This document shows positions 49,883 through 64,000 of a stretch of 64,000 nt of DNA, one piece after another. Under the pieces are notes generated by a model that made no database searches, was not told the DNA's origin, and saw nothing but the letters and a program-made list of their open reading frames with translations. This DNA is from Citromicrobium sp. (lineage in GTDB: Bacteria > Pseudomonadota > Alphaproteobacteria > Sphingomonadales > Sphingomonadaceae): contig QFNA01000006.1 in NCBI GenBank assembly GCA_003248395.1, positions 246-64,245 of the forward strand, given 5' to 3'. Position numbers and translations under genes: made by a program. Numbering within the stretch: the first letter of the stretch is position 1; every line of letters begins with the position of its first letter.

Positions 49883-51193
49883 GTGGAACCCGCCAGCGCC
49901 CCTTCTCCCGAGACATCCCCCCTCCGCATAGCGAACTTCCGCGCCTACCTCGTCGCGCGGTTCGCGATGGTGATCGGGCAATATGCCATGATCCTGATCA
50001 TCGGCTGGCAGACCTACACCATCTCGCGCGAGAGCGGGATGGATGCCTTCGCCGCCTCGGGCCAGCTCGCACTGATCGGCCTGCTGCAATTCCTGCCCCT
50101 CTTCGTGCTCTCCCCCTTCTCCGGTCTCGCGGCGGACCGCTTCAATCGCAAGACGGTCGCGCGCCTGACCATCCTGCTCCAGCTGGTCGGGGCCGCAATC
50201 CTGGCCTGGCTGACCTGGACCGGAGGGCTGCGGATCGGATCGCTGTTCGCCGTCGCCGTACTGCTCGGCGTGGTGCGCGCCTTCAACGGCCCGGCGCTGT
50301 CCGCGCTGGCGCCCAACCTCGTGCCGAAGGCAATCTTGCCCAACGCCATCGCGCTTTCCTCGATCGCCTGGCAGACGGGCATGATCCTCGGTCCGGCGGT
50401 GGGCGGCTATGCCTACGATGCCGCGCCCGCCTTGCCCTATGCGATCGCCAGCGTCCTGTTCCTCGTCGCGATCATCGCCATCAGCACGATCGGCGCGGTG
50501 CCGCGCTCGCCCATCACCGGGGCGCAGCGCCCCATCGGCCAGGTGATCGATGGCTGGCGCTACGTCCTCCGCAACAGGATGGTGCTGGGCGCGATCACGC
50601 TCGACCTGATGGCGGTGTTCCTCGCCGGAGCGACCGCGCTGTTCCCGCCGTTCGCCTACGATATCCTCAAGGTCGGCGAGACCGGCCTCGCCCAGCTTGC
50701 CGCCGCCCCGGCGGTGGGCGCGGCGATCACCGCCATGTGGTTCAGCTTCCGCCCGCTGAAGACCGATGTCGGCCCCAAGATGCTCTGGGCGGTCGCGGTG
50801 TTCGGGCTGGCGACGATCGTCTTCGGCCTGTCACGCTCCATGCCGCTCTCGCTCGCCATGCTGGTGATCGTGGGCGCGGCGGACATGTTCAGCGTCTACA
50901 TCCGCCAGTCGCTGATCCAGCTGCATACGCCCGACGACAAGCGCGGGCGCGTCTCCTCCGCCAGCCTGCTGACGATCAGCGCCTCGAACGAAGGCGGCGA
51001 TGCCTTTTCCGGCTTCCTCGCCAGCATGTTCGGCCCCGCCATCGCGGTGATCGCAGGCGGCGCGGGCGCAATCGCGACGGTCGCCTTGTGGAGCCGGATT
51101 TTCCCCGTTTTGCGCACGACCCGGACCTTCGACCCGCCTGAAGAATTGCAAGACCATACACGGCAAGAAAAACCGCAGGAGCAGATCCCATGA
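49883..51193 (+). CDS. MFS transporter (EntS/DHA3-like)
   Basis: [10 protein letters not shown], about 12 [11 protein letters not shown]. Confidence 0.88.
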
Positions 51194-52107
51194 AAGCCCA
51201 GTCCGTCCTCGAAACCATCGGCGGTACGCCGCATATCCGCCTATCGCGCCTGTTCCCCGACCACGAGGTCTGGGTGAAGAGCGAGCGCGCAAATCCGGGC
51301 GGTTCGATCAAGGATCGCATCGGCCATGCCATGGTCGAGGATGCGGAAAAGGCCGGCAAGCTCAAGCCCGGCGGCACGATCATCGAACCGACCAGCGGCA
51401 ACACCGGCATCGGCCTCGCCATGGCCGCCGCGGTCAAGGGCTACAAGCTGGTGCTCGTTATGCCCGAAAGCATGAGCATGGAGCGCCGCCGCCTGATGCT
51501 CGCCTATGGTGCCACATTCGATCTCACGCCCAAGGAAGGCGGGATGAAAGGCGCGATCGAGCGTGCGCAGGAACTGGTCGAACAGACCGAAGGCGCCTGG
51601 ATGCCCAGCCAGTTCGACAACCCGTCCAACTTCGAAGTCCACCAGCGCACCACCGCGCGCGAAATCCTGGACGATTTTGCCGACGAACCGATCGACGTGC
51701 TCATCACCGGCGTCGGCACCGGCGGCCACCTCACCGGCTGCGCCGAGGTGCTGAAGGAAACATGGAGCGGGATGAAGGCCTACGCCGTCGAGCCCACCGC
51801 TTCGCCCGTCATCAGCGGCGGCCAGCCCGGCCCGCACCCGATCCAGGGCATCGGCGCCGGCTTCGTCCCCGAAAACCTCCACACCGCCGCCATCGACGGC
51901 GCCATCCAGGTCGAGCCCGAAGACGCCAAGCAATGGGCCCGCCGCTGCGCGGCCAAGGAAGGCCTGCTGGTCGGCATCTCCAGCGGCGCAACGCTGGCCG
52001 CGATCGCGAAGAAGTTACCCGAACTCGACGCAAACAGCCGCGTCCTCGGCTTCAACTACGACACCGGCGAGCGGTACCTGTCAGTGCCAGACTTTTTGCC
52101 GGAGTGA
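51190..52107 (+). CDS. cysK: Cysteine synthase A
   Basis: NPGGSIKDR (PLP lysine), [27 protein letters not shown]. Confidence 0.96.
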
Positions 52108-52307: not shown

Positions 52308-53141
52308 ATGATAAACTTGGACCCGGTCATTGAGCGTATCGACGCGCTGCTGGATGAGGACACTGACCAGAGCGTGACCTATGCTGCCTTGGAGGCTCGG
52401 TTGGCGCTCGAACGGGTATGCTACGACCGACTCCGCCAGCGGCATGACTACATTTCCCACGAGCAGCTTCGGCGCTGGCAGCCCGGTGCCGTGGTCAACA
52501 TGCTCATCAAAGAGGTGGACGAGCATCTCGGCAAGACCCTCACCCTCAGTATCAGCAAGTCCTCAGTCTGCCCCGGTGTGAAGCTGGAAGATGAGGAGTA
52601 TGTGGAGGTCGGGACGGAAATCGGTTTCAGCCCGAAGAAGATTGCAAAGCTGTGGAACGCGCTGGCGAAGCTGGCGCTTCACGCCCACCTGCCCGAACAC
52701 CGCAACGATGCAATACCAGCATACGGTGATCGGCCGCGCATTCGTGCGAAGGTGGAGGAGGTGCAGTCGGAACTTCGGAGGCTCGCCAAGGGAACTATGA
52801 CATTTTCCGGCCTCGGAGAGGAAGTGAAGTTCGAATGCTCGTGCGGCGAATTGAACAAACGGCGCGCAGGTCTCTTGCGTGACGGGCAGCACGTCCACTG
52901 TCTGAACCCAGAGTGCAAGCAGACGTGGAAGGTTACGCGAGAGAACGACGGCTTCGGCTTCGAGCAGGTGACGGTCCCCGTGAACTGCGAAGAGTGCAGC
53001 GCCGCTAACCACATGCCCTGGCGCTTCTTTCTTGATATGAAGCACGACGAGGTTGGTTCATTCTCATGCCATTCCTGCCGCCATAAAAATTACGTGCAGT
53101 GGCGGTTGATGCAAATCCACCGAGAGATCAGCGTCGGCTGA
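52308..53141 (+). CDS. Hypothetical protein: HEPN-like helical N-domain plus two C-terminal zinc ribbons
   Basis: YAALEARLALER and LWNALAKLALH helices; Cys pairs CSC, CLNPEC, CEEC, CHSC. ORF is solid, fold call is inference. Confidence 0.7.
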   Translation: MINLDPVIERIDALLDEDTDQSVTYAALEARLALERVCYDRLRQRHDYISHEQLRRWQPGAVVNMLIKEVDEHLGKTLTLSISKSSVCPGVKLEDEEYVEVGTEIGFSPKKIAKLWNALAKLALHAHLPEHRNDAIPAYGDRPRIRAKVEEVQSELRRLAKGTMTFSGLGEEVKFECSCGELNKRRAGLLRDGQHVHCLNPECKQTWKVTRENDGFGFEQVTVPVNCEECSAANHMPWRFFLDMKHDEVGSFSCHSCRHKNYVQWRLMQIHREISVG

Positions 53142-53161: not shown

Positions 53162-53917
53162 TCAGTTGGAAAGCTTGGCGATCCTCTTGTTTAACCGTGC
53201 AATCCTCGTATCCCAGTCACCTTTCCACCCTTGTTCTCTTGCTTGCTCGGATAGGGCACCTGCGGCAACATAATCGCCGCGCTTCTCAAAGATGATAGCA
53301 AGCTGCTTGTAGCCATGGTGCGACGGCAACGTGTCTGGCGGATACCTGTCAAACGTCGCCTCACCCCTCTGGACGAGGTCGATCTTTCGCTGCGCCTCTT
53401 CCCTGCTGTCTTTGCCCCACCTGATCTCGATTAATGGTTTTTTTGCGGGTGCGAGGAAAGCCTCAGCAGCCAAAGGCGCTAGCTGAATCTGATCTCGGCA
53501 GGCTGTCTCAGCTCGTTGAAGAGCGAAGCAATCTGTGTCTCGCCATCTGTAGTAGACCATAGCCTTCGCCTGATATGTGAAGTGTTTCGTCAGAACATTC
53601 TCTGAGACGGCAAGCAGCTCCTCAGCCTTGTCGATTATTCGGAACCCGATGGTGCGGTCTGTCTCATGCTTGAACCAAGTTGCTAATGTAGAGAGTAGCT
53701 GACTGGGATTGCTAACGTCGCCACTAGTTTTCTCTTCGATCAGCATCCTTCCCCCATCGCTCGCTCCCATAGGCTGAAAAGTCGCTAGGATATGGGCGCG
53801 CTCGTCATCGTCGAATTCGGTCAACCACCAGTCGGTTAGACCCGACGCACCGATGAAGCCGTGAATTTGGTTCTTCTCTTTTCTGAATGGCCACATCGCT
53901 GGAATCACCTTTTTCAC
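53162..53917 (-). CDS. Hypothetical TPR-like helical protein
   Basis: 251-aa lower-GC ORF; LPSHHGYKQLAIIFEKRGDY..EQAREQGWKGDWDTRIARL C-terminus; may start at MWPF. Confidence 0.7.
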   Translation of the reverse strand: MKKVIPAMWPFRKEKNQIHGFIGASGLTDWWLTEFDDDERAHILATFQPMGASDGGRMLIEEKTSGDVSNPSQLLSTLATWFKHETDRTIGFRIIDKAEELLAVSENVLTKHFTYQAKAMVYYRWRDTDCFALQRAETACRDQIQLAPLAAEAFLAPAKKPLIEIRWGKDSREEAQRKIDLVQRGEATFDRYPPDTLPSHHGYKQLAIIFEKRGDYVAAGALSEQAREQGWKGDWDTRIARLNKRIAKLSN

Positions 53918-54199: not shown

Positions 54200-54350
54200 G
54201 CTGTGAGAAAGCCTCTCCCGTCCCTGCAAGTTCCCACCCTTTCGAGCGATCCCCTACGATCTCGACTGCGAATCCGACTTGCGCCAGTGATTCAATAATG
54301 AATTTGCTCATCTGGGGGTCGTCCTGAATAATCAGAACAGTCTTTGCCAC
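54200..54350 (-). pseudogene. Truncated response-regulator receiver domain remnant
   Basis: MAKTVLIIQDDPQMSKFIIESLAQVGFAVEIVGDRSKGWELA matches a receiver N-terminus; similarity ends before the phospho-Asp. Confidence 0.6.
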
Positions 54351-54435: not shown

Positions 54436-56760
54436 CTATCGCGGCGAGAGAGGCGCCACGTTAAAACGATTCATACCTGCACCGCCATCCGAACCTCCAT
54501 CGTAGATGAAACCATAGACGAGGCTGTTGTCTCTCAAGCTCAGAACGTTGCCGCGGACCCAAGACCCAAGGATTTTGTCCACGAGCAGTTCGGGCTTTTG
54601 CCATGCGCCACGGACGCAACGGACCGAGTAGATGCTCCGGCTATCTTCGTCGATAAACAAGAGCACAGGCGATCCAACATGAATCACGAGGTCGGCCGCG
54701 GGCTGCTGCGAATCGACCGCATCGGTGATCACCGGCCCCGGGGTGATGCGGGACGGGGCGCCGGGCGCTGCCAGCCCGACGATGCGCCGCTCCCACAGAC
54801 TGCCATCGGCGAGGCGATAGGCGATGATGACGGTGTCGGCCGCAGCGTCATAGGCAAGCGGGAGCACGGCGCCATATTCGGCCCGCCCGGTGCCCGCGCC
54901 GCGCGCGAGAAGCTGGCGCGCGGTGAGGCTGCCATCGGGCAGGATGCGCCGATACCAGATGCTGCCATCGTCGCTGAAATAGGCCAGGTGGACGACATCG
55001 CCGCGCCCGACGATCGCCTGCGGCCCGGCATTGACGAAGCCTGCCTCCGGATCGAGCTCCACCGGCGCGCTCCAGACCAGCTCGCCGATGCCCTCATCCG
55101 CCCGGTCACCGGGCCTCTGCCCGGTCCCGACCACGTAATGCAGCCGATCGGCCAGATAGACGGCGACGATCGACCCGTCCGAGCGCATCGCCATCGTCGC
55201 GGTCTGGGCGATCGCCTCGCCCCGTGCCGCCACCTCGTCGCGCACCGCCCAGCTGTCGGGGCGTTCGGCATTGTCCGAGGTCAGGAACATGTGCCGCCTG
55301 ACCGAAGAGGTAACCTGGTGGATGATCTCGATACGGTCGCCGACAAGCCGGCTGTCGACCGATTCGAGGTCGCCGGTGGCCGGCCGGTGGGCGCCATCCA
55401 TCTCGCGCCAGTGCCGACCGCCATCGACGGATTTCATCATCATGAAGCGATTGTCGGTCTCGGTCGGCTCCATGATGAAGTAGAGGTCGCCATTGGTGGC
55501 CTGCCATGGACCGATGCGGCCGGGATTCTCGACGAAGGTGCCGCCCAGATGGCCGGCGGCGATGGCCAGCTCGACCCGGCCCGTGGCGCTGGCCGGGCGA
55601 CCCTCGCCATCGACCATGCGAAAGGCAAAGCTGTCGCCGGCCTCGTTCGTCACCGGACCGTCGGCGTGGCGGCGGATGACGAGTGGCCATTCGAACTCGC
55701 TGTGCCCGTCGGCCGGCGCGGATGCGGAGACCTCTTCGGCCAGCGACACTCCTGCGCCGGGCGAGAACGGGCCGGGAGCGGCATGGATGAGGTCGGCGGT
55801 CGGCGCTCCGGCGGCATAGCCGCGCGTGGCCACGATGCTGGCGCGCGGCGTGCGGGCGACGCCCTCGAGCGTCCATTCGGCGATATCCACCCGGTCGCCA
55901 GCGGCAAGGCCGATCCCCGCCTGGCCGCGCGGCAGGCCATCGGCGAGCGGCAGCGTCAGTGAGAATGCGCCATCGCCGATCTCGATCTCGAGCGCGGCGT
56001 CCTCATATTGCAGCTCGACTTCCTGCCAGCCGGTGAGCGCCGGACCGGCATGCGCCTCGCCGAGCAGCGTCTCGTGCCCGTCGCGCTGGCGAACGACTCG
56101 GACCCGGCCCGAAGGCATGAAGTGCGCGGCCGCGTAATTGTCTTCATCGACATAGCCGAACAGCAGCGCCACGCCGCGCTCGTTGCCGGCCGGCAGCCGC
56201 AGCCGCGCCGCGATGGAGAATTCCGGCAGCGGCCAGGGCGCGCGCGAGAGCGCCCGCAGCTCCGCCCCGGCCGCTGCCGCGCGCAGCACCGCGCCTTCGT
56301 CCGTCATGGCCACGGCGAGCGTGCCGGTGGCGCCGGCGGCCATGCTCCAGCCCGGCGCCACCGTGCCAATCGCATCGTCGGCGAAGGTCTGCGTCCATTC
56401 GCGCATGGGATGGGGAAAATCCTGCGCCTCGACATGCTCCCAGGCGCCGGCATTGCGGCTGACCTGCAGGCTCAGCGGCCCCTCAGGCGGCCCGCCGATG
56501 GTCTCGAGACGGAGGCGGAACGGCCGGTCGGCCTCGACCACCACGTCTTCCCCCGCATCGCCCGCCCAGCCGCCGGGCGCGTTGAGCGGCGCATCGGCCT
56601 GCACGCGCACGCGGAAGCTCGGCTCCTGTGCCGCGGCCGGCGCGCTGGCGAGGGCGAGGGCGGCCAGGCCGGAAAGAACAGCCGAAACAGACCGGCCGCC
56701 TGCCCGCTGGCTGAAGGCGCGGCGGCCGGATGCGGGGTTGCCGCGCACCCGGTCAATCAC
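54436..56760 (-). CDS. Secreted multidomain protein: ConA/LamG-like domain plus Asp-box (BNR) beta-propeller
   Basis: GTG at 56760 overlaps the upstream stop; SGRRAF twin-arginine-like motif and AAA-Q cleavage site; SVDGGRHW Asp-box. Confidence 0.72.
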   Translation of the reverse strand: MIDRVRGNPASGRRAFSQRAGGRSVSAVLSGLAALALASAPAAAQEPSFRVRVQADAPLNAPGGWAGDAGEDVVVEADRPFRLRLETIGGPPEGPLSLQVSRNAGAWEHVEAQDFPHPMREWTQTFADDAIGTVAPGWSMAAGATGTLAVAMTDEGAVLRAAAAGAELRALSRAPWPLPEFSIAARLRLPAGNERGVALLFGYVDEDNYAAAHFMPSGRVRVVRQRDGHETLLGEAHAGPALTGWQEVELQYEDAALEIEIGDGAFSLTLPLADGLPRGQAGIGLAAGDRVDIAEWTLEGVARTPRASIVATRGYAAGAPTADLIHAAPGPFSPGAGVSLAEEVSASAPADGHSEFEWPLVIRRHADGPVTNEAGDSFAFRMVDGEGRPASATGRVELAIAAGHLGGTFVENPGRIGPWQATNGDLYFIMEPTETDNRFMMMKSVDGGRHWREMDGAHRPATGDLESVDSRLVGDRIEIIHQVTSSVRRHMFLTSDNAERPDSWAVRDEVAARGEAIAQTATMAMRSDGSIVAVYLADRLHYVVGTGQRPGDRADEGIGELVWSAPVELDPEAGFVNAGPQAIVGRGDVVHLAYFSDDGSIWYRRILPDGSLTARQLLARGAGTGRAEYGAVLPLAYDAAADTVIIAYRLADGSLWERRIVGLAAPGAPSRITPGPVITDAVDSQQPAADLVIHVGSPVLLFIDEDSRSIYSVRCVRGAWQKPELLVDKILGSWVRGNVLSLRDNSLVYGFIYDGGSDGGAGMNRFNVAPLSPR

Positions 56761-57973
56761 GCTCCCAGCCCCAGGCCTCGAGCATGATGGCGAACAGGCG
56801 GGTGTTGGGAAGATAGCCGCGCACCCGCTCGGCGCCGGCCCCGATCGCCAGCGCGGGCACCTCTTCGGCCGTGTGGGTGGCGTTGACGAAGACATTGTCC
56901 AGCCGCACGTGGTCGTCATCCTCGTCGTCGCTGGCCGCGGGCTGTGCCGCCTGCCACGCATCGTAGCCGGCCAGAAGATCCTCGCCGCGGCGCCCGCCAT
57001 CGACCTGCAGGCCGAAGGAATGGTCGGCGGTGAACAGCAGCAGCGTCTCGCCAAGATCGACGCGGGCCGCCACCTCGGCCATCAGGCCGTCGAACCGGGC
57101 GAGGTTTTCCAGCCCCTCGCGCACGTCGTCGGTGTGTGCGTCCCATTCGACCACCAGCAGATAGCCCTTGTCCGCCTGTTCGAGCCGGTCGAGCGCGGCC
57201 AGCGTGGCTGCGCGCACGTCGATCTCGTCGGCCACCACCACCGGGCGGGCATTGTCGGCCGGCATGTCGGCGAGCGTCGCGTAGATCGGGCGATCATGCG
57301 CGCTGGCGAGCTGGTCGAAGCCGGTGCCGAGCGCCGCGAGCTGCTCGCCGATCCTGCCGCGCCCGCGGCCGATCAGCACGTCCACCCCGTCGCCGAAGCG
57401 CGGTGCGAAGGCCTGCGGAAAGATGTTGCCCCAATCGCCGCGGTCATTGGCATGGGCATAGGTGGCCGCCGGCGTGGCATCGGCGATCGACTGGCTCGAG
57501 ACCACGCCGGTCAGCAGCCCGCGCTCCTCGGCATATTCCAGCAGGGTCTTGGTCGGCTGCCCGTCGCGCTCGCCGCGCACGGCATCAGGCCCCAGGCTGA
57601 TGACGCCGTTATGCGTTTTCACCCCGGTCATGATCGCCGACATGCCGTTTGCCGAATCCGACACGAAGCGATCGACCGGCGAGGTCTCGCTCAGGCCGAG
57701 ATGGGGCCATTGCTGGATGCTGAGCCGAAGCGGCTCCCCATGCGCAAGGATGCTGGCGGCATTGAGCGTGGCGACCCCGGCCGCATCGGCGAGGAACACG
57801 ATGACGTTGCGCGCCTGCCGTGTTTCTTGCGCCTGTTGCACGGGTGGCGGTGCCGCTGGAATATCCTGCCCGGATGCGGGCGCGGCCAGTATTGCAGCGA
57901 GGCCTGCGAAGGCCGCAGCAATCGGCGCGACCGGGCGAGGGGTGCGGATGGTCATGGCGAGCGGTGCTTTCAT
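56753..57973 (-). CDS. Alkaline phosphatase (PhoA-like), secreted
   Basis: NVIVFLAD, VSDSANG (Ser nucleophile), DATPAA, AHANDR, TADHS, HTAEEV. Confidence 0.88.
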   Translation of the reverse strand: MKAPLAMTIRTPRPVAPIAAAFAGLAAILAAPASGQDIPAAPPPVQQAQETRQARNVIVFLADAAGVATLNAASILAHGEPLRLSIQQWPHLGLSETSPVDRFVSDSANGMSAIMTGVKTHNGVISLGPDAVRGERDGQPTKTLLEYAEERGLLTGVVSSQSIADATPAATYAHANDRGDWGNIFPQAFAPRFGDGVDVLIGRGRGRIGEQLAALGTGFDQLASAHDRPIYATLADMPADNARPVVVADEIDVRAATLAALDRLEQADKGYLLVVEWDAHTDDVREGLENLARFDGLMAEVAARVDLGETLLLFTADHSFGLQVDGGRRGEDLLAGYDAWQAAQPAASDDEDDDHVRLDNVFVNATHTAEEVPALAIGAGAERVRGYLPNTRLFAIMLEAWGWERD

Positions 57974-57975
57974 GG

Positions 57976-60912
57976 TCAGAAGGTGTAGCCGAGGCCGAAG
58001 GTGAACTTGCGGCCGGTGAGGTTGGCGTCTTCGGCGAAAGGTTCATAACCCTGATAGGAGAACTGCGCCTCGTCGGTGACGTTGATCACGCTGGCAAACG
58101 CCCGCAGGCCGTTGTCGAGCGAGTAGGATGCCGACAGATCGAGGCGCTCTTCGGGGCCGAAGAACTCGTCGCTCTCGATGTCGCTGCCCAGGCCCTCCAC
58201 ATAGTCCGAGCGGTTGACATAGTCGCCGCGGAGCATGAAGCCGTCCCAGGCCCATTCCAGCGTGGCCGTGAACAGGAAGTCCGAAAAGCCGGGCAGGGGC
58301 AGATCATCGCGATCGGTGCGGTTGGGATAGGAGGCCTCGGTTTCAGTGAAGGTGGCGCTGACCCCGGCGGTCAGCCCGCTCAGCGCGCCCGGCAGGAACA
58401 CCAGCCGCTGGCGCGCGATCAGCTCGAGGCCATAATTCTTGGCGCTCGTGCCGTTCATCGGCACCTCGTATTCGAAGTCGCCGTCCTCCGCTGGGATGGG
58501 GATGCCATTGGCATCGAGCGCGTTGAAGTCGTAAACCAGATTATACGAGAAATTGTCGATGTCCTTGTAGAACACGCCGACCGAATAGAGACCGCCGCGA
58601 TCGGTGTAATATTCGAGCTGGGCATCGAAATTGTCCGACAGCGCCGGTTGCAGGTCCGGATTGCCGTCGGTGATGTCGCCGTCCTCGTTGATGAACCGGC
58701 CGCTGGCCAGCTCGCTGCGGCGCGGCCGGCCATAGGTGCGGTTGTAGCTTTCGCGCAGGATCAGGTTGGGCGTCAGCTCGTGGCGCAGGTGGACGCCCGG
58801 AAGCCAGAAATCATAGCTGTTGGCGTTGGTCACCGCATCCACGCTTGCCTCGCCGTCGAGATAGCTGACCGCATAATTGGTGTTGTCGAAATCGACCCGC
58901 TCGTAGCGCAGGCCGGCGATGATGGTGTGCGCGCCGGCGCGCAGCGTGCCCATGCCATAGCCGGCATAGGTCTGCTCGGTGCTGTCGAAATCGCCGACAT
59001 TGCTGTCTTCCAGCGTGTCTTCCTCGTTCAGTTCGAACAGTTCGGGATTCGAGGCGAGCAGCGCGGCACCGCGCTCGGGGAACACGTTGTAGACCTTGGC
59101 CCCGCCCATATAGACCTCGTCGGTCGGATCGAGGATCGAGGCATAGGGAAAGGCATCGTCCATCTCGTAGACCACGGCTGTCTCGTCGCGGGTCGCCTCG
59201 CTGCGGAAATACTTGGCGCCGGCCTTGAGCGTCAGGGCGCTGCTGCCGACATCGAAGCTGCGCTCGAAGTCGACCTTGGCGCTGTAGACGTCCTCGGTGG
59301 AAAGCGCGCTCGTCAGGGCCAGCTCGCCCTCGCTGACAAGCGCGAGATCGGTGCTGTCCTGCCCGCTGATCTCGGTGATGGCGACATCGCCGCGCGAGGT
59401 GTCGAACAGCTCGTATTCGAACAGCATCCACGGCGAATCCGGCTCCGACACGAAGTTGAGCTCGTTGTCGTTGACGGTGTTCACCTCGCTGCGCGAATAG
59501 AACAGGTCGTAGGTCAGCAGGCTGGCGCCGCCCTCGTGGCGGCCGCCGAAATTGACCGAATACAGCTCGGTCTCGCGATCCTGCTCGGTGCCGATCCACC
59601 CGCGCGAGCCTTGCGAGCCATCATCGCCCGGAGTGCCGCGGCCGTAATTCGGCGTCAGCTCGGCATAGGTCTTGCGGCCGTCGATGGCGTCCTGGAACCG
59701 CGTGTCGATGTCGATATCGGTCTCGAACACGTCGTTGCTGCGGTCGGCCTGGCTGTAGAAGCCGCGCAGATAGAAGGCGTTGAACTCGTCGGTGCGATAA
59801 TCGAGATCGACGTTGACGGTGTTGGTGCGGGTGGTCTGATAGTCGATTTCCCAGTGCGAGGATTCCATGAACCAGACCGGCCGGTCATATTGGCCGAGCC
59901 CAAGCTGCGGATTGTTGTCCGGCGTCACCTGAACCCAGTCCATGTCGCGATTGTTCGAGGTCCGATCGACCTCGTAGCTGCCGACCGAGATGCTCACGCC
60001 GAAATTGTCGTAATCGCCGCCGAGGCTGAAGATGTCCGAATAGCTGGCGCTGAGCGAATAGCCCCAATCCTCGGGCAGGTCGGAATAGACCCCGCCGGCC
60101 TCGATATTGATGCGCTGGCCGCTGCGCTCGAACGCGCTGCGGGTGACCACGTTGATGATACCGCCGAGCGCATCGCCGTCGCGGTCGGGCGTGGCGGCCT
60201 TGATGACCTCGATATTGGAGATCCCGTCGCCCGAGAACTGGTCTGTCGACAGGCCGCGGCTGCCGCCCGCCGTGGGCACGCGGTTGCCGTTGATCTGGAA
60301 CGAATTGTAGGCGCCCTCGATGCCGCGGATGTTGATGCCGGTCGGCTCGCCAGACTGGTTGGTGTTGACGCTGAGGCCGGGCAGGCGCTGCAGCGCATAG
60401 CCGATATTGCCATCAGGCGCGGGGCCGAACACCTCTTCGGAAAAGATGTTGACGATGCCATCGGCGGTGCGCTGCTGGTTGATCGCCAGCGCCTGCCCGA
60501 CCGCCGCGGCGCGTACGACAATAGGCTCGTGGCCAAGGGCCGTACTGTCGAGGCCGAAGTCTGCCACGGCGTTGGTATTCTCGGCGACGATAACGCGGCG
60601 CGTTGCCGGATCAAAGCCGACATACTCGACCTCGATGGTGTTGGTGCCGACAGGAACCTGTAGCTGGAAGCGGCCATCCTCGGTCGTGACATCGCGCTCA
60701 TTTGTTCCACTCACTCGGACAACCGCGCCGCGCAGCGATTCGCCGGTCTGCACATCGTAAACGCGGCCTGTTACCGTCGCCTGCTGCTCGGCAGTGACGG
60801 GAGAGGAGGAAGTTCCTGCGTCCTGGGCGTGAGCCGAAGTGGCAATCATGGCGACCAGCGCCGTAGATGTAAGCAAATGGCGCGATGCACGCATGGAAGA
60901 TGCAGTTATCAT
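57976..60912 (-). CDS. TonB-dependent receptor with N-terminal carboxypeptidase-regulatory-like extension
   Basis: Signal peptide, VTGRVYD..G.F, plug ALQRLPG..IRG..IEVIK..GGIINVVT, GNPDLQP, terminal GYTF. Confidence 0.95.
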   Translation of the reverse strand: MITASSMRASRHLLTSTALVAMIATSAHAQDAGTSSSPVTAEQQATVTGRVYDVQTGESLRGAVVRVSGTNERDVTTEDGRFQLQVPVGTNTIEVEYVGFDPATRRVIVAENTNAVADFGLDSTALGHEPIVVRAAAVGQALAINQQRTADGIVNIFSEEVFGPAPDGNIGYALQRLPGLSVNTNQSGEPTGINIRGIEGAYNSFQINGNRVPTAGGSRGLSTDQFSGDGISNIEVIKAATPDRDGDALGGIINVVTRSAFERSGQRINIEAGGVYSDLPEDWGYSLSASYSDIFSLGGDYDNFGVSISVGSYEVDRTSNNRDMDWVQVTPDNNPQLGLGQYDRPVWFMESSHWEIDYQTTRTNTVNVDLDYRTDEFNAFYLRGFYSQADRSNDVFETDIDIDTRFQDAIDGRKTYAELTPNYGRGTPGDDGSQGSRGWIGTEQDRETELYSVNFGGRHEGGASLLTYDLFYSRSEVNTVNDNELNFVSEPDSPWMLFEYELFDTSRGDVAITEISGQDSTDLALVSEGELALTSALSTEDVYSAKVDFERSFDVGSSALTLKAGAKYFRSEATRDETAVVYEMDDAFPYASILDPTDEVYMGGAKVYNVFPERGAALLASNPELFELNEEDTLEDSNVGDFDSTEQTYAGYGMGTLRAGAHTIIAGLRYERVDFDNTNYAVSYLDGEASVDAVTNANSYDFWLPGVHLRHELTPNLILRESYNRTYGRPRRSELASGRFINEDGDITDGNPDLQPALSDNFDAQLEYYTDRGGLYSVGVFYKDIDNFSYNLVYDFNALDANGIPIPAEDGDFEYEVPMNGTSAKNYGLELIARQRLVFLPGALSGLTAGVSATFTETEASYPNRTDRDDLPLPGFSDFLFTATLEWAWDGFMLRGDYVNRSDYVEGLGSDIESDEFFGPEERLDLSASYSLDNGLRAFASVINVTDEAQFSYQGYEPFAEDANLTGRKFTFGLGYTF

Positions 60913-60945
60913 AAGTCCCTCATTTGAATGGAAGGCCTGCCAGGC

Positions 60946-62400
60946 CTATTTGACGCTTTCGTAGGGCAAGGTGTTCTGGAATAGCCGCTGCTCGGGCAGC
61001 GTGTTTTCGGAAGGCTGGATCGACTTGGTGCCATTTGCCGATTTCATCAGGTCGACCTCGTCGTAGAGGGCGCCGTCGGCGGTGTAAGCAGCATAGGTCA
61101 ACTGGTCGCCATCGATCTCTATGACCTGGAAAAACTGTGTGTTTTCGCCCCGCCGGGCAAGCGCGACTCCGTTCGGCGCGTAAGCATCCCAGCCAGTAGC
61201 GCTGAACTCGTATTGCTTGGGGCCGGAGACCGAGTTGACGAACATCGTCGTCACCGTGCCCTCGTCCACTGCGGCGCTGCGGTTCGGCGTCATTTCCAGA
61301 TCGACCTCCCGCTCGCCAACCTGGCCGCGGGCATAGGTGTGATCGTGCCCTTGCAGCACAAGGTCGACCGAATGCTTGAGCAGCACCGGTAGAAGGACCT
61401 CGCGCCGCGACCGGTTATCCCGCTCGCGCCCGGAGGAGAACACCGGGTGGTGCATCGTCACGATTCGCCAACGCGCATCGCTGGCGGCGAGCCCGGAGTC
61501 GAGCCATTCGGCCTGTTCGGACATATCCGAAACGTTGCTATTGAGCACGAACACTTCGAGGTCGTTCGAGTAGCGTACCGAGTAAACTGTCTCCTGAATC
61601 TCATCCGGAAGCTCCGGCTCCTCGGGTAGGCGGAACTGGGGGCGCCATAGGATCGAAAGCAGCTTCTGCTTTTGCTCCTCGCCTAGTTTGTAGCTGTCGT
61701 ATTCGTGGTTGCCCGAAACCGGGATCGCCGGAATCATCCCGTTGATGAAGCTGCCGGCCCGGAACCAGTGCGCCCATTCCAGATCACGCGAACCGCGGTT
61801 TACAAGGTCGCCGGCGTGGAGGATGAAGCGGGCATCGGGAGCCTGCTGGAAGGCGGCCCGGATCACGCGTGGCCAATGCGAATCGAGGCCATTCTGGGCA
61901 TCACCGAGATAGATGAAGCGCAAGGGGCCGGAACTGGGAGCGGTCCGGGTCTGGAACCACTCGCTCCACTGACCCTCAGCGCCTTGCACCCGATAGGCAT
62001 ACAGGGTGTCGGGCTCCAGTCCGTCGAAGCGCACCGAGTGATGGCTGGTTGCAGGAAGGCCCGCATTGTGCGTAACCGGCAGGACGAGCCCCTCGTGAAC
62101 GACTTGGTCGAGGTCGAGCAGCTGGGTCTGTGCATCGACCGAGCGCGCAAGCTGGTCGAATCGTGCATCGGGCAATGCTAGTGTGATCTCGGCACGGGTC
62201 GCCTTAATTTCGGCGGAGGTGCGCCAGCTCACGCTGATTGAGGACGCCGGATCTCTCTCCATGGTCGCCACGATCCGGTCTGGCCACGTGCTCGCCTCCT
62301 GCCAGGGAACCTGAGCCGGGGTATGAGCACCCTCGTGCGCCATTGCTGGCATGACCGAGCCAAGCATCGCGCCCGTCATTAGCATCAACAAAAGTTTCAT
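60946..62400 (-). CDS. Secreted calcineurin-like metallophosphoesterase with FN3-like domain (purple acid phosphatase-like)
   Basis: GLEPDTLYAYRV, GDAQ, GDLVN, GNHE, HHP, GHDH motifs. Confidence 0.9.
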   Translation of the reverse strand: MKLLLMLMTGAMLGSVMPAMAHEGAHTPAQVPWQEASTWPDRIVATMERDPASSISVSWRTSAEIKATRAEITLALPDARFDQLARSVDAQTQLLDLDQVVHEGLVLPVTHNAGLPATSHHSVRFDGLEPDTLYAYRVQGAEGQWSEWFQTRTAPSSGPLRFIYLGDAQNGLDSHWPRVIRAAFQQAPDARFILHAGDLVNRGSRDLEWAHWFRAGSFINGMIPAIPVSGNHEYDSYKLGEEQKQKLLSILWRPQFRLPEEPELPDEIQETVYSVRYSNDLEVFVLNSNVSDMSEQAEWLDSGLAASDARWRIVTMHHPVFSSGRERDNRSRREVLLPVLLKHSVDLVLQGHDHTYARGQVGEREVDLEMTPNRSAAVDEGTVTTMFVNSVSGPKQYEFSATGWDAYAPNGVALARRGENTQFFQVIEIDGDQLTYAAYTADGALYDEVDLMKSANGTKSIQPSENTLPEQRLFQNTLPYESVK

Positions 62401-62748
62401 TGAGCGCCCCTTCCACCGCAATGCAATACGAAGGGCGCCTAGGCGCGCCGAGTTTCAGTTTTCAGTCGGTTTCATTAAATTTCGTTAATGTTCGCCAATC
62501 TGAGAGTTGGATTTCCCGCATAACCGGTTGGTTTGATCCAATTGATTAGGTCAGTTGGAGGTGTTTAGTCCGCTCTTAGATGCCCGGCGGATTATCTTGA
62601 ACGGCCGCAATTAGGGCGCAAAGCTGCTGTTGAAAGGCAAAAGGGCAAGCGGCAGAAAACCACCCCACCTCGCACATTCCATTTTCCTACACGCCGCGCC
62701 GTTGCTAGCTTCGCATCGGCTCTTTGAAACCTGAATACCACGGCAAAC

Positions 62749-62828: not shown

Positions 62829-64000
62829 TTATGCCGCCGTCTGGAAGGCCTCTTCGCCCAGCGCCATCATGCTGTCGCTGCCCGCCTCCAGCTTGCGGCG
62901 CAGCGCTCCGGCGTCGGGCAGGTAACGGTCCATGTAATAACGCGCGGTGGCGAGTTTCTGTTCGTAAAAAGCCTCGTCGTCGCCCGCATCGCCCAGCTTC
63001 GCCTGCGCCACCTTGGCCATCTTGAGCCACATCAGGCCCAGCGTCACGATGCCCATCATATGCATGTAGTGATGCGCGCCCGCACCCAGATGGTTGGGGT
63101 TCTGCATCGCGTTCTGCATGAACCACATGGTCGCGGCCTGCTGCTGGCCCAGCGCCTTTTCGAGCTGCTCCGCCATACCCTTGAGCTCTTCGACGTCCTT
63201 CGCCGCGGCGATTTCCTCGCCGACATGCTTGAAGAAGGCCTGCACGGCAGCCCCGCCCTTCTGCGCCAGCTTGCGGCCACACAGGTCCATCGCCTGCACG
63301 CCGTTGGTGCCTTCGTAAATCTGGGCAATGCGCGCATCGCGGACGAACTGGCTCATGCCCCATTCCTCGATATAGCCATGGCCGCCGAAGACCTGCTGCA
63401 TGTTGGTGGCGACCTCGTAACCCTTGTCGGTGCCATAGCCCTTGATGACCGGGGTCATCAGGCCGAGCAGCAAGTCGGCTTCCTCGCGCTCTTCCTCGGT
63501 CTGCGCCTTGTGCGTCAGGTCGACCAGCAATCCGCCCCACAGCGCCAGCGCGCGCATCCCTTCGGTAAAGGCCTTGGCGTCCATCAGCATCCGGCGGACA
63601 TCGGGGTGGACGAAGATTGGATCGGCCTGCTGCTCGGGTTCTGCCGGGCCAGTCAGCGCCCTGCCCTGGCGCCGATCGAGCGCGTAGGCGACGGCGTTCT
63701 GGTAGGCGACCTCGGCCTGGCTGAGGCCCTGGATACCGACACCGAGACGCGCGGCGTTCATCATGATGAACATGGCGGCGAGGCCCTTGTTCTCCTCGCC
63801 GACGAGCCAGCCTTTCGCTCCGTCGTAGTTCAGCACGCAGGTCGAATTGCCGTGGATGCCCATCTTTTCTTCGATGGAGCCGCACATCACGCCATTGCGC
63901 TCGCCCAGCGAACCATCTTCCTCGACCAGGAACTTGGGCACCACGAACAGCGAAATGCCCTTGCTGCTGTCGGGCGCGCCCGGCGTCTTGGCGAGGACGA
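62829..64000 (-). CDS. Acyl-CoA dehydrogenase, 3' part (5' end outside window)
   Basis: KGISLFVVPK, EEKMGIHG, QVFGGHGYIEE, IYEGTNGVQA. Confidence 0.93.
   Translation of the reverse strand, partial: VLAKTPGAPDSSKGISLFVVPKFLVEEDGSLGERNGVMCGSIEEKMGIHGNSTCVLNYDGAKGWLVGEENKGLAAMFIMMNAARLGVGIQGLSQAEVAYQNAVAYALDRRQGRALTGPAEPEQQADPIFVHPDVRRMLMDAKAFTEGMRALALWGGLLVDLTHKAQTEEEREEADLLLGLMTPVIKGYGTDKGYEVATNMQQVFGGHGYIEEWGMSQFVRDARIAQIYEGTNGVQAMDLCGRKLAQKGGAAVQAFFKHVGEEIAAAKDVEELKGMAEQLEKALGQQQAATMWFMQNAMQNPNHLGAGAHHYMHMMGIVTLGLMWLKMAKVAQAKLGDAGDDEAFYEQKLATARYYMDRYLPDAGALRRKLEAGSDSMMALGEEAFQTAA

Follow-up and report, generated by a model that had tools for sequence, protein, structure and literature searches.

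What does a TonB-dependent receptor take up when it is encoded together with two phosphatases and an exported protein of no named family? Such a cluster lies at positions 54436 to 62400 of a 64,000-nucleotide stretch of Citromicrobium sp. DNA (contig QFNA01000006.1, positions 246 to 64,245; hereafter the window), and the original prediction read it as an operon for organophosphate scavenging. The surroundings of its fourth protein, here called G4, in other genomes bear this out, and we consider organophosphate scavenging very probable. Inositol phosphates are the probable substrate, and on balance we lean towards a modular phosphorus-scavenging unit for inositol phosphates, that is, phytate, lower inositol phosphates and glycerophosphoinositol-type esters. 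The four genes are as follows:

60946 to 62400, minus strand: gene 1, an exported calcineurin-like metallophosphoesterase of 484 aa with an N-terminal FN3 domain of purple acid phosphatase (PAP) type (Pfam PF16656 and PF00149)
57976 to 60912, minus strand: gene 2, a TonB-dependent receptor of family TIGR01782, 978 aa, with an N-terminal CarboxypepD_reg-like domain (PF07715 plug, PF00593 barrel)
56753 to 57973, minus strand: gene 3, a compact PhoA-family alkaline phosphatase of 400-406 aa (PF00245)
54436 to 56748 (alternative start 56760), minus strand: G4, an exported 770-aa protein of an unnamed family (AlphaFold2 model, pLDDT 91.4, pTM 0.88)

The called frames matched the four co-oriented, tightly packed genes, the spacing and the flanks as first described. 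Gene 1 (62400-60946) is separated from the receptor gene (60912-57976) by 33 nt and the latter from the PhoA gene (57973-56753) by 2 nt. The last junction is an 8-nt overlap if G4 begins at the GTG at 56760 and a 4-nt gap if it begins at the GTG at 56748, where the database protein P0002 starts. A hydrophobic signal-like stretch was seen by eye at the N-terminus of all four proteins, as expected from the claim that all are exported. The proposed twin-arginine (Tat) export of G4 gained no support: the RRAF motif occurs in the window protein and was not seen in homologue N-termini, which by eye mostly carry a lipobox or look Sec-like.

To place G4 in context, we took the best 80 of 209 G4 loci in GTDB genomes. 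In these loci and at the window end, 756 frames were called with a simple scorer and clustered, and 199 neighbours (within ~3.6 kb, one per cluster) were scanned against Pfam, with follow-ups; beyond that distance, the counts are minimum values. Within 4 kb of G4 there is a receptor in 41 of the 80 loci and a phosphatase in 35, with both in 28 and either in 48. Among the 44 loci with 4 kb of sequence to either side, a receptor, a phosphatase or an iol gene occurs in 30. The phosphatases belong to unrelated folds: PAP-like and other calcineurin-like enzymes, PhoX, PhoA, beta-propeller phytase and the inositol monophosphatase family, with PhoD at the edge of the cluster in genome G053.

Inositol is the only substrate-specific pathway that recurs in these loci. 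iol genes were found inside the fetched locus in 6 of 80 cases (0.08 expected) and a phytase likewise in 6 (0.10 expected), giving nine loci in total with one or the other; genome-wide, IolD exceeded the cut-off in 24 of the 80 genomes and a phytase in 25. On a FastTree tree of 77 propeller domains, from which four truncated or split loci were left out, these nine rows need five changes, all forced by well-supported branches. Among the substrates listed in the original prediction, phytate and other inositol phosphates are therefore the likeliest by their neighbours; for sugar phosphates and teichoic-acid-like polymers, no recurring gene appeared among the 199 neighbours scanned, and these parts of the list found no support.

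The link is plainest at locus L053, in genome G053, where genes for IolG, a UhpC/GlpT-like antiporter, an inositol monophosphatase-family protein and G4 face those for a receptor, a symporter, IolA, IolE, IolD, IolC and PhoD. The antiporter is of the major facilitator superfamily and resembles organophosphate antiporters, below the family cut-offs; together with a small lipoprotein and the inositol monophosphatase-family gene it stands in front of G4 (L053:6955-9679). This arrangement suggests inner-membrane import of inositol monophosphate. No phytase in the G053 genome exceeded the cut-offs of PF02333, PF00328 and PF14566.

G4 itself had no match in Pfam or NCBIfam. Relatives numbered 295 among 8000 candidates scored, and the propeller profile found 274 cluster representatives at E 1e-30 and 1450 at 0.001. 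From the models and the alignment, the protein is predicted to consist of the following parts:

55564 to 56616, minus strand: N-terminal Ig-like beta-sandwich, residues 45-115 and 300-395, with many conserved Arg and interrupted by an insert (conservation, models)
55858 to 56400, minus strand: optional CBM66-like beta-sandwich insert, residues ~117-297 (profile match to 4azz)
54451 to 55560, minus strand: seven-bladed beta-propeller, residues 397-766 (strand pattern of the model)
55408 to 55431, minus strand: Asp-box S440-W447, the single clear one, invariant in the alignment

In the model of a homologue lacking the insert (pLDDT 92.2), the Ig-like domain gave a best Z of 7.8, to a generic Ig-like fold, and Foldseek returned no match for it at E 0.001. 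The insert matched the levanase CBM66 module 4azz at E 1.4e-5 over profile positions 167-279 and is missing in 18 of the 80 loci. Of the earlier label of an Asp-box/lectin protein, the one clear Asp-box thus remains, while the lectin-like part turns out to be this optional insert. By fold, the propeller is closest to the lectin 6gxr (Z 29.1, rmsd 2.9, 322 aligned residues) and the PL42 enzyme 7esk (Z 25.1), with further matches to CylK, to PL42/GH145 and PL25 propellers (Z 24-25), whose catalytic set is His/Tyr/Arg, and to BtuG lipoproteins (Z 22.8 and 22.6). Searched alone against PDB sequences, G4 had no match at E 10, and its propeller profile matched PDB at the Asp-box only (E 0.02). Two family assignments were rejected: a GH33 sialidase/BNR protein, given no Pfam match and one clear Asp-box only (the names 'sialidase family protein' are automatic), and a PF02333 beta-propeller phytase, given no Pfam match and an hhalign E of 0.42.

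The residues that stand out in the propeller are E407, E427, D460, E462, Q515 and D750, and also H477, D679, Q682 and R732. Across the full-length representatives, 29 near and 85 far, conservation of E407, Y423, E427, D460, E462 and Q515 is 93-100% (96-99% in the far set), and among the 85 far relatives an acidic residue at position 750 (D/E) is kept in 92%, R732 in 64% and H477 in 58%. Judged by strand order, the conserved residues fall where inner strands begin and second strands end, which is the usual active face. Propeller glycosidases also place carboxylates on that face. Metal-dependent propeller hydrolases have a carboxylate cluster of this kind, as an excerpt of PMC9414882 describes for phytase. 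We tentatively take G4 to be a metal-dependent phosphoesterase, an assignment that is possible and somewhat short of even. A second tier of G4-like propellers (P0264, P0277-P0382) is found in large proteins that look secreted and reach 2338 aa, a few of which contain two propeller stretches. In 39 long distant relatives, the regions outside the propeller hold Ig, PKD, cadherin or RTX repeats or no named domain, and no phosphatase or glycosidase domain above cut-off was found there.

The two named phosphatases look catalytically intact. Gene 1 carries the motifs GDAQ166, GDLVN197, GNHE230, MHHP316 and GHDH351, and its best PDB match is the sweet potato-type PAP 1xzw (E 8.6e-12). Like the purple acid phosphatases 1xzw, 1kbp and 6git, it has an FN3-type N-domain, a calcineurin-like catalytic domain and the motifs GNH(D/E), VxxH and GHxH. 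The motif of the Tyr ligand in purple acid phosphatases is GDxxY (GDLSY in 1xzw); unlike these enzymes, gene 1 has Asn in place of the Tyr, which its eight closest orthologues lack too. Because GDLVN replaces GDxxY, gene 1 falls outside the purple acid phosphatases proper and is predicted to work like a calcineurin-type dimetal phosphoesterase.

Gene 3 resembles the PhoA alkaline phosphatases (1k7h, 2w5v and the E. coli enzyme 1alk) in its Ser nucleophile, Arg and most metal ligands, and differs from them in its length of ~400 aa and in a metal loop reduced to EWDAH. Where the longer loop reads E-x4-D-x3-H, this one retains Asp and His after the Glu at a spacing shorter than the usual four residues between zinc ligands, and in the alignment it is five residues shorter than that of shrimp alkaline phosphatase 1k7h. 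EWDAH is present in 100 of 100 aligned relatives, as are D57, S101, T161, R172, E270, D272, H274, D311, H312 and H361, whose roles (Ser nucleophile, Arg, Asp/Thr/Glu, ADH/His ligands) we presume to be those of the E. coli enzyme. The active site looks intact as far as the residues go, and the shortened metal loop makes this compact PhoA another unusual feature of the locus that lends itself to testing.

The receptor belongs to TIGR01782, scoring 462.6 bits against a cut-off of 310. In a quick tree of 40 rows, with receptors below 800 aa left out, it falls into a 14-row clade with SH-aLRT 100, made up of receptors from alphaproteobacteria and Opitutales; 12 of the 14 stand beside G4, a figure owed largely to the way the loci were collected. 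The L006 receptor, which adjoins G4, clusters with the L107 receptor, which adjoins a phytase, and this is the only tie of the window's G4 clade to inositol. G4 pairs with several receptor clades that are less than 30% identical to the window receptor. In L003 (L003:3-4667), the receptor is 81-90% identical to that of the window over the C-terminal part, and the L003 G4 is only ~54% identical, no closer than other G4s. From this contrast, operon modules seem to be shuffled between loci.

Gene order in other genomes points the same way. All four genes occur together in 2 of the 80 G4 loci, in the same order in L001 and with gene 1 moved in L002. Receptor, PhoA and G4 are present in L003 and in the metagenome locus L113, on contigs that begin at or in the receptor gene; the metagenome scan, made with a single protein, gave two loci. 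PhoA is missing from L007, L012 and L043, which keep the other three genes (gene 1, receptor and G4). In 401 sampled genomes of the family of G005, close receptor orthologues were found in three, two of them with PhoA and without G4, and the compact PhoA in 14. The 14 compact-PhoA regions fetched held no G4 among their called frames; seven had a receptor close by, one of them as a receptor-phytase-PhoA operon (L107). Because the same genes neighbour each other, in varying subsets, in other genomes, the four-gene unit is real and modular. The predicted co-conservation was thus found, in a form that departs from a fixed four-gene system: partners are swapped between loci.

Several observations attach to these loci. 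The closest four-gene copy, L001, lies on a 12.7-kb contig filed under a Mycobacterium metagenome-assembled genome; its genes group with alphaproteobacterial ones, and the contig is probably misbinned. Unnamed or barely named frames adjoin G4 operons at L002:13795-16170 (792 aa) and L055:12177-15269 (1031 aa), and beside another (L064:3891-5372) lies a 494-aa CehA/McbA-type metallohydrolase, just under the cut-off.

Some regions carry candidate sites for phosphate control. Near-perfect Pho boxes (two TGTCA half-sites 11 bp apart, at most one mismatch) were found ahead of 5 of 25 regions, L005, L055, L063, L069 and L085, and four of these five are G4 loci (~0.5 expected). Upstream of the window operon we noted a different element:

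62453 to 62495, no strand assigned: four TTTCA-like half-sites with a 10-bp period, upstream of the first gene

This region agrees at 19 of 22 bases with the sequence that precedes the L085 receptor gene (100 shuffles gave 18 at most, for a pair chosen post hoc). It is a possible response-regulator site and serves only as a lead. The L085 receptor stands beside a divergent OmpR-type regulator. This regulator (L085:12637-13419) is 67% identical to one in L109 (L109:10936-11640), each beside a receptor and a compact PhoA, and a dedicated OmpR-type regulator for receptor/compact-PhoA loci is possible.

Overall, these data suggest a model in which the TonB receptor would draw a charged substrate into the periplasm, where the metallophosphoesterase and the compact PhoA, judging from their active-site motifs, would strip phosphate from it. 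In print, phytase activity is reported for alkaline-phosphatase-superfamily enzymes and non-plant enzymes of purple acid type (sections of PMC6355987), which makes genes 1 and 3 plausible contributors. G4 might then be a third phosphoesterase, with E407, E427, D460, E462 and D750, together with Q515, holding divalent ions, and would act on positions or linkages that its partners handle badly. In these alphaproteobacteria phosphate alone would be used, and elsewhere, in other phyla, the G4 module would feed the iol pathway. IolD did not exceed the cut-off in 56 of the 80 G4 genomes, including the alphaproteobacterial G002-G007, G012, G016, G043 and G044, although many genomes are incomplete assemblies, in which a missing IolD is weak evidence. 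Because IolD was not found in these ten, inositol is probably not burned in the alphaproteobacterial carriers, and the 56 genomes without an IolD above the cut-off favour a phosphate role of G4 over a sugar-releasing one.

The model would matter beyond this operon. A large share of organic phosphorus is held in inositol phosphates, a recalcitrant pool, and the classes counted in surveys are only the known phytases (PMC13674438, in the parts consulted); recognised classes are listed there and in PMC6355987. With phytases and iol genes in its context and a conserved predicted pocket, G4 is a candidate for a missing enzyme or capture protein. We think it doubtful, but worth stating, that G4 founds a further structural class of bacterial inositol-phosphate phosphatase, seven-bladed, metal-dependent, present in at least seven phyla, missed by every phytase survey and unrelated to the histidine acid, six-bladed, tyrosine-phosphatase-like and purple acid phytases. 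If so, it would give proteobacteria, Opitutales and Acidobacteriota, with the receptor, a way to use, without SusD, those inositol phosphates that known phytases break down only in part.

A number of results weigh against an inositol-phosphate operon with G4 as its phosphoesterase. An inositol-specific neighbour is lacking in 71 of the 80 loci, and neither the window operon nor any of the 10 rows of its G4 clade adjoins an inositol gene or a phytase (nine of these 10 rows do have phosphatase neighbours); the substrate is thus carried over to the window from other branches of G4. Some of the inositol loci do not count as independent cases (L047/L054; L011/L013/L066), and among the 44 loci that reach 4 kb to either side, 14 lack a receptor, a phosphatase and an iol gene alike within that distance. 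Receptor and PhoA also occur without G4 (L084, L085). Nor is G4 the only exported phosphoesterase in G053, since PhoD belongs to the same cluster. The window has no canonical 11-bp Pho box at up to two mismatches. By fold and by language-model neighbours, G4 sits with lectins, lyases and BNR/sialidase-like proteins, none of them phosphatases, and it shows no detectable likeness to beta-propeller phytase (PF02333) by hhalign; among the 50 listed fold matches there is no phosphatase, which does not exclude a phosphatase role. The shared pocket was read from strand order, not from coordinates.

These points leave room for other readings, of which the best placed, if still somewhat unlikely, is a broad organophosphate scavenger for nucleotides, sugar phosphates and lipid head groups. 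It would have no preference for inositol, and the iol and phytase neighbours would reflect clustering of phosphorus genes or specialised branches. PhoA, PhoX and calcineurin-like enzymes have broad substrates, CHAD and pyrophosphatase neighbours occur once each, and inositol-specific neighbours are confined to nine loci outside the window's clade. However, iol genes serve carbon and not phosphorus, so that their adjacency at five places of the tree is left unexplained by phosphorus-gene clustering, and no second substrate-specific pathway recurs among the neighbours scanned.

Alternatively, G4 could be no enzyme at all but a capture protein, a lipoprotein or periplasmic propeller that binds inositol phosphate, bridged by metal, and hands it to the receptor or the phosphatases in the manner of PusD or BtuG. 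Most G4 homologues look like lipoproteins, G4 often directly follows the receptor gene, other phosphatases were always at hand in the loci checked, and the top fold matches are lectins, with BtuG lipoproteins further down; PusD binds inositol phosphate according to the part of a preprint consulted (bioRxiv 10.64898/2026.09.03.749221). Against this, five carboxylates and a Gln kept in distant relatives suit catalysis, several receptor clades of below 30% identity to the window receptor fit a fixed docking surface poorly, the window G4 has no lipobox cysteine, and the receptor also occurs without G4. We regard such a role as unlikely.

Less likely again is a glycosidase or lyase that trims glycosylated inositol phosphates, such as plant or algal glycosyl inositol phosphoryl ceramide (GIPC) head groups and glycosylphosphatidylinositol, or another phosphoglycan, with the calcineurin-like enzyme as the phosphodiesterase that frees the head group. 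The Asp-box, the CBM66-like insert, the PL42, PL25 and GH145 propeller matches and a weak GH62 match in one distant relative (E 2e-5) are in keeping with it, and the calcineurin-like enzyme of Pus1 is likened to a GIPC phospholipase C in a portion of the same preprint (bioRxiv 10.64898/2026.09.03.749221). PIG-L deacetylases lie near G4 in L013, L017 and L028, but such genes are common, and two of these loci, L017 and L028, are related to each other. Moreover, the 199 neighbours scanned included no recurring glycoside hydrolases or sugar-catabolic genes, and G4 is kept in genomes in which IolD was not found; phosphate could presumably be removed from such head groups without removing the sugar. 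Finally, a chance assembly of four genes in a variable region, to which the low-GC orphans and the regulator remnant next door and the varying partners might point, is extremely improbable in view of the same order in L001, the rearranged copy in L002, the three-gene subsets in L003, L007, L012, L043 and L113, and a GC content at third codon positions (GC3) of 0.76-0.84, close to the 0.82-0.89 of housekeeping neighbours.

The operon is flanked on the left by a PALP-family gene (51190-52107), which by its sequence we take to be cysK, and on the right by an acyl-CoA dehydrogenase gene starting at 62829. The interval from cysK to G4 holds two unnamed frames of low GC content and what is left of a receiver domain. 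The two frames are convergent (52308-53141, plus strand, 277 aa; 53162-53917, minus strand, 251 aa) and occupy a patch of 53-58% GC that follows cysK; several CxxC pairs occur in the first, and neither had a match in Pfam and NCBIfam scans. Just downstream of G4, 54225-54350 (minus strand) encodes the first 42 codons of an OmpR-type receiver domain followed by unrelated sequence. It is 33% identical to the regulators beside the L085 and L109 receptors (E 2e-5 to 7e-5 for a search within this region) and is probably the remnant of a regulator. GC3, ~0.85 elsewhere, dips to 0.62 where G4 ends (54436-54620) and to 0.62-0.70 where the receptor gene begins (60550-60912), and these may be recombination edges. 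Around 51.9-54.6 kb no noteworthy flanking repeats were seen, and the window has no tRNA. The scan of window proteins, which covered 26 of the 36 genes called left of 46 kb and a few others, with the rest judged by their first 50 residues, found no iol, phoB or other phytase gene. The nearest relatives of the operon genes are mostly from sphingomonad-type alphaproteobacteria.

How does this locus compare with known systems? Lim et al. 2007 reportedly described pairs of a TonB receptor and a beta-propeller phytase. Examples of such pairs are a Citromicrobium case (PMC3400609) and Fjoh_1368 (PMC8115612), both taken from parts of these papers. The words phytase, phytate, phosphatase and inositol do not occur in PMC1790865. 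The window operon resembles the receptor-phytase pairs in placing a receptor beside a putative exported inositol-phosphate hydrolase, and 6 of the 80 G4 loci include such phytases. Unlike them, it has no PF02333 gene among the proteins scanned, and G4 is predicted to be seven-bladed, whereas an excerpt of PMC9414882 gives the phytase six blades. With the known seven-bladed propellers, namely PLL/BP39L lectins, CylK, PL42/GH145, PL25 and BtuG, G4 shares the fold only (Z 22-29, 7-13% identity), and it differs in having no significant sequence match to them (best E 0.02, at the Asp-box), different conserved residues and a phosphatase-rich context; the likeness of its insert to the levanase CBM66 module is at sequence level.

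The nearest functional parallel in print is the Pus system of Bacteroidota, in which growth on phosphatidylinositol and glycerophosphoinositol is sustained by PusCD together with the phosphoesterases encoded nearby (Connolly et al., bioRxiv 10.64898/2026.09.03.749221; Lidbury et al., PMC8115612; both in excerpt). As in Pus1 and Pus2 with PusCD, a TonB transporter is encoded with a calcineurin-like phosphoesterase or PhoA, and Pus, for which periplasmic hydrolysis is proposed, imports inositol-phosphate esters for phosphorus, as we infer for the window operon. In contrast to Pus, as far as those excerpts describe it, the window operon has no SusD-like lid, no phosphatidylinositol-specific phospholipase C and no extracytoplasmic function sigma pair, its receptor is of TIGR01782 and not SusC, its host is proteobacterial, and it carries G4. 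None of the four operon proteins matched the SusD family, so by that measure it is not a Pus member, and a word search of the main text of the preprint found neither 'propeller' nor 'phytate'. A full-text literature search, judged by titles and the beginnings of abstracts, returned no description of the operon or of the G4 family, although an unnamed family is hard to find by words and supplements could list such genes. The original prediction had taken the combination to be undescribed; its receptor-phosphatase logic is in print, in Pus loci and receptor-phytase pairs, and the G4 component is new. Together, these comparisons show a locus of a known kind, receptor plus phosphatase, whose new part is G4, tied to inositol phosphates by counted context, and which would extend receptor-driven organophosphate import, so far shown in Bacteroidota, to other phyla without a SusD lid.

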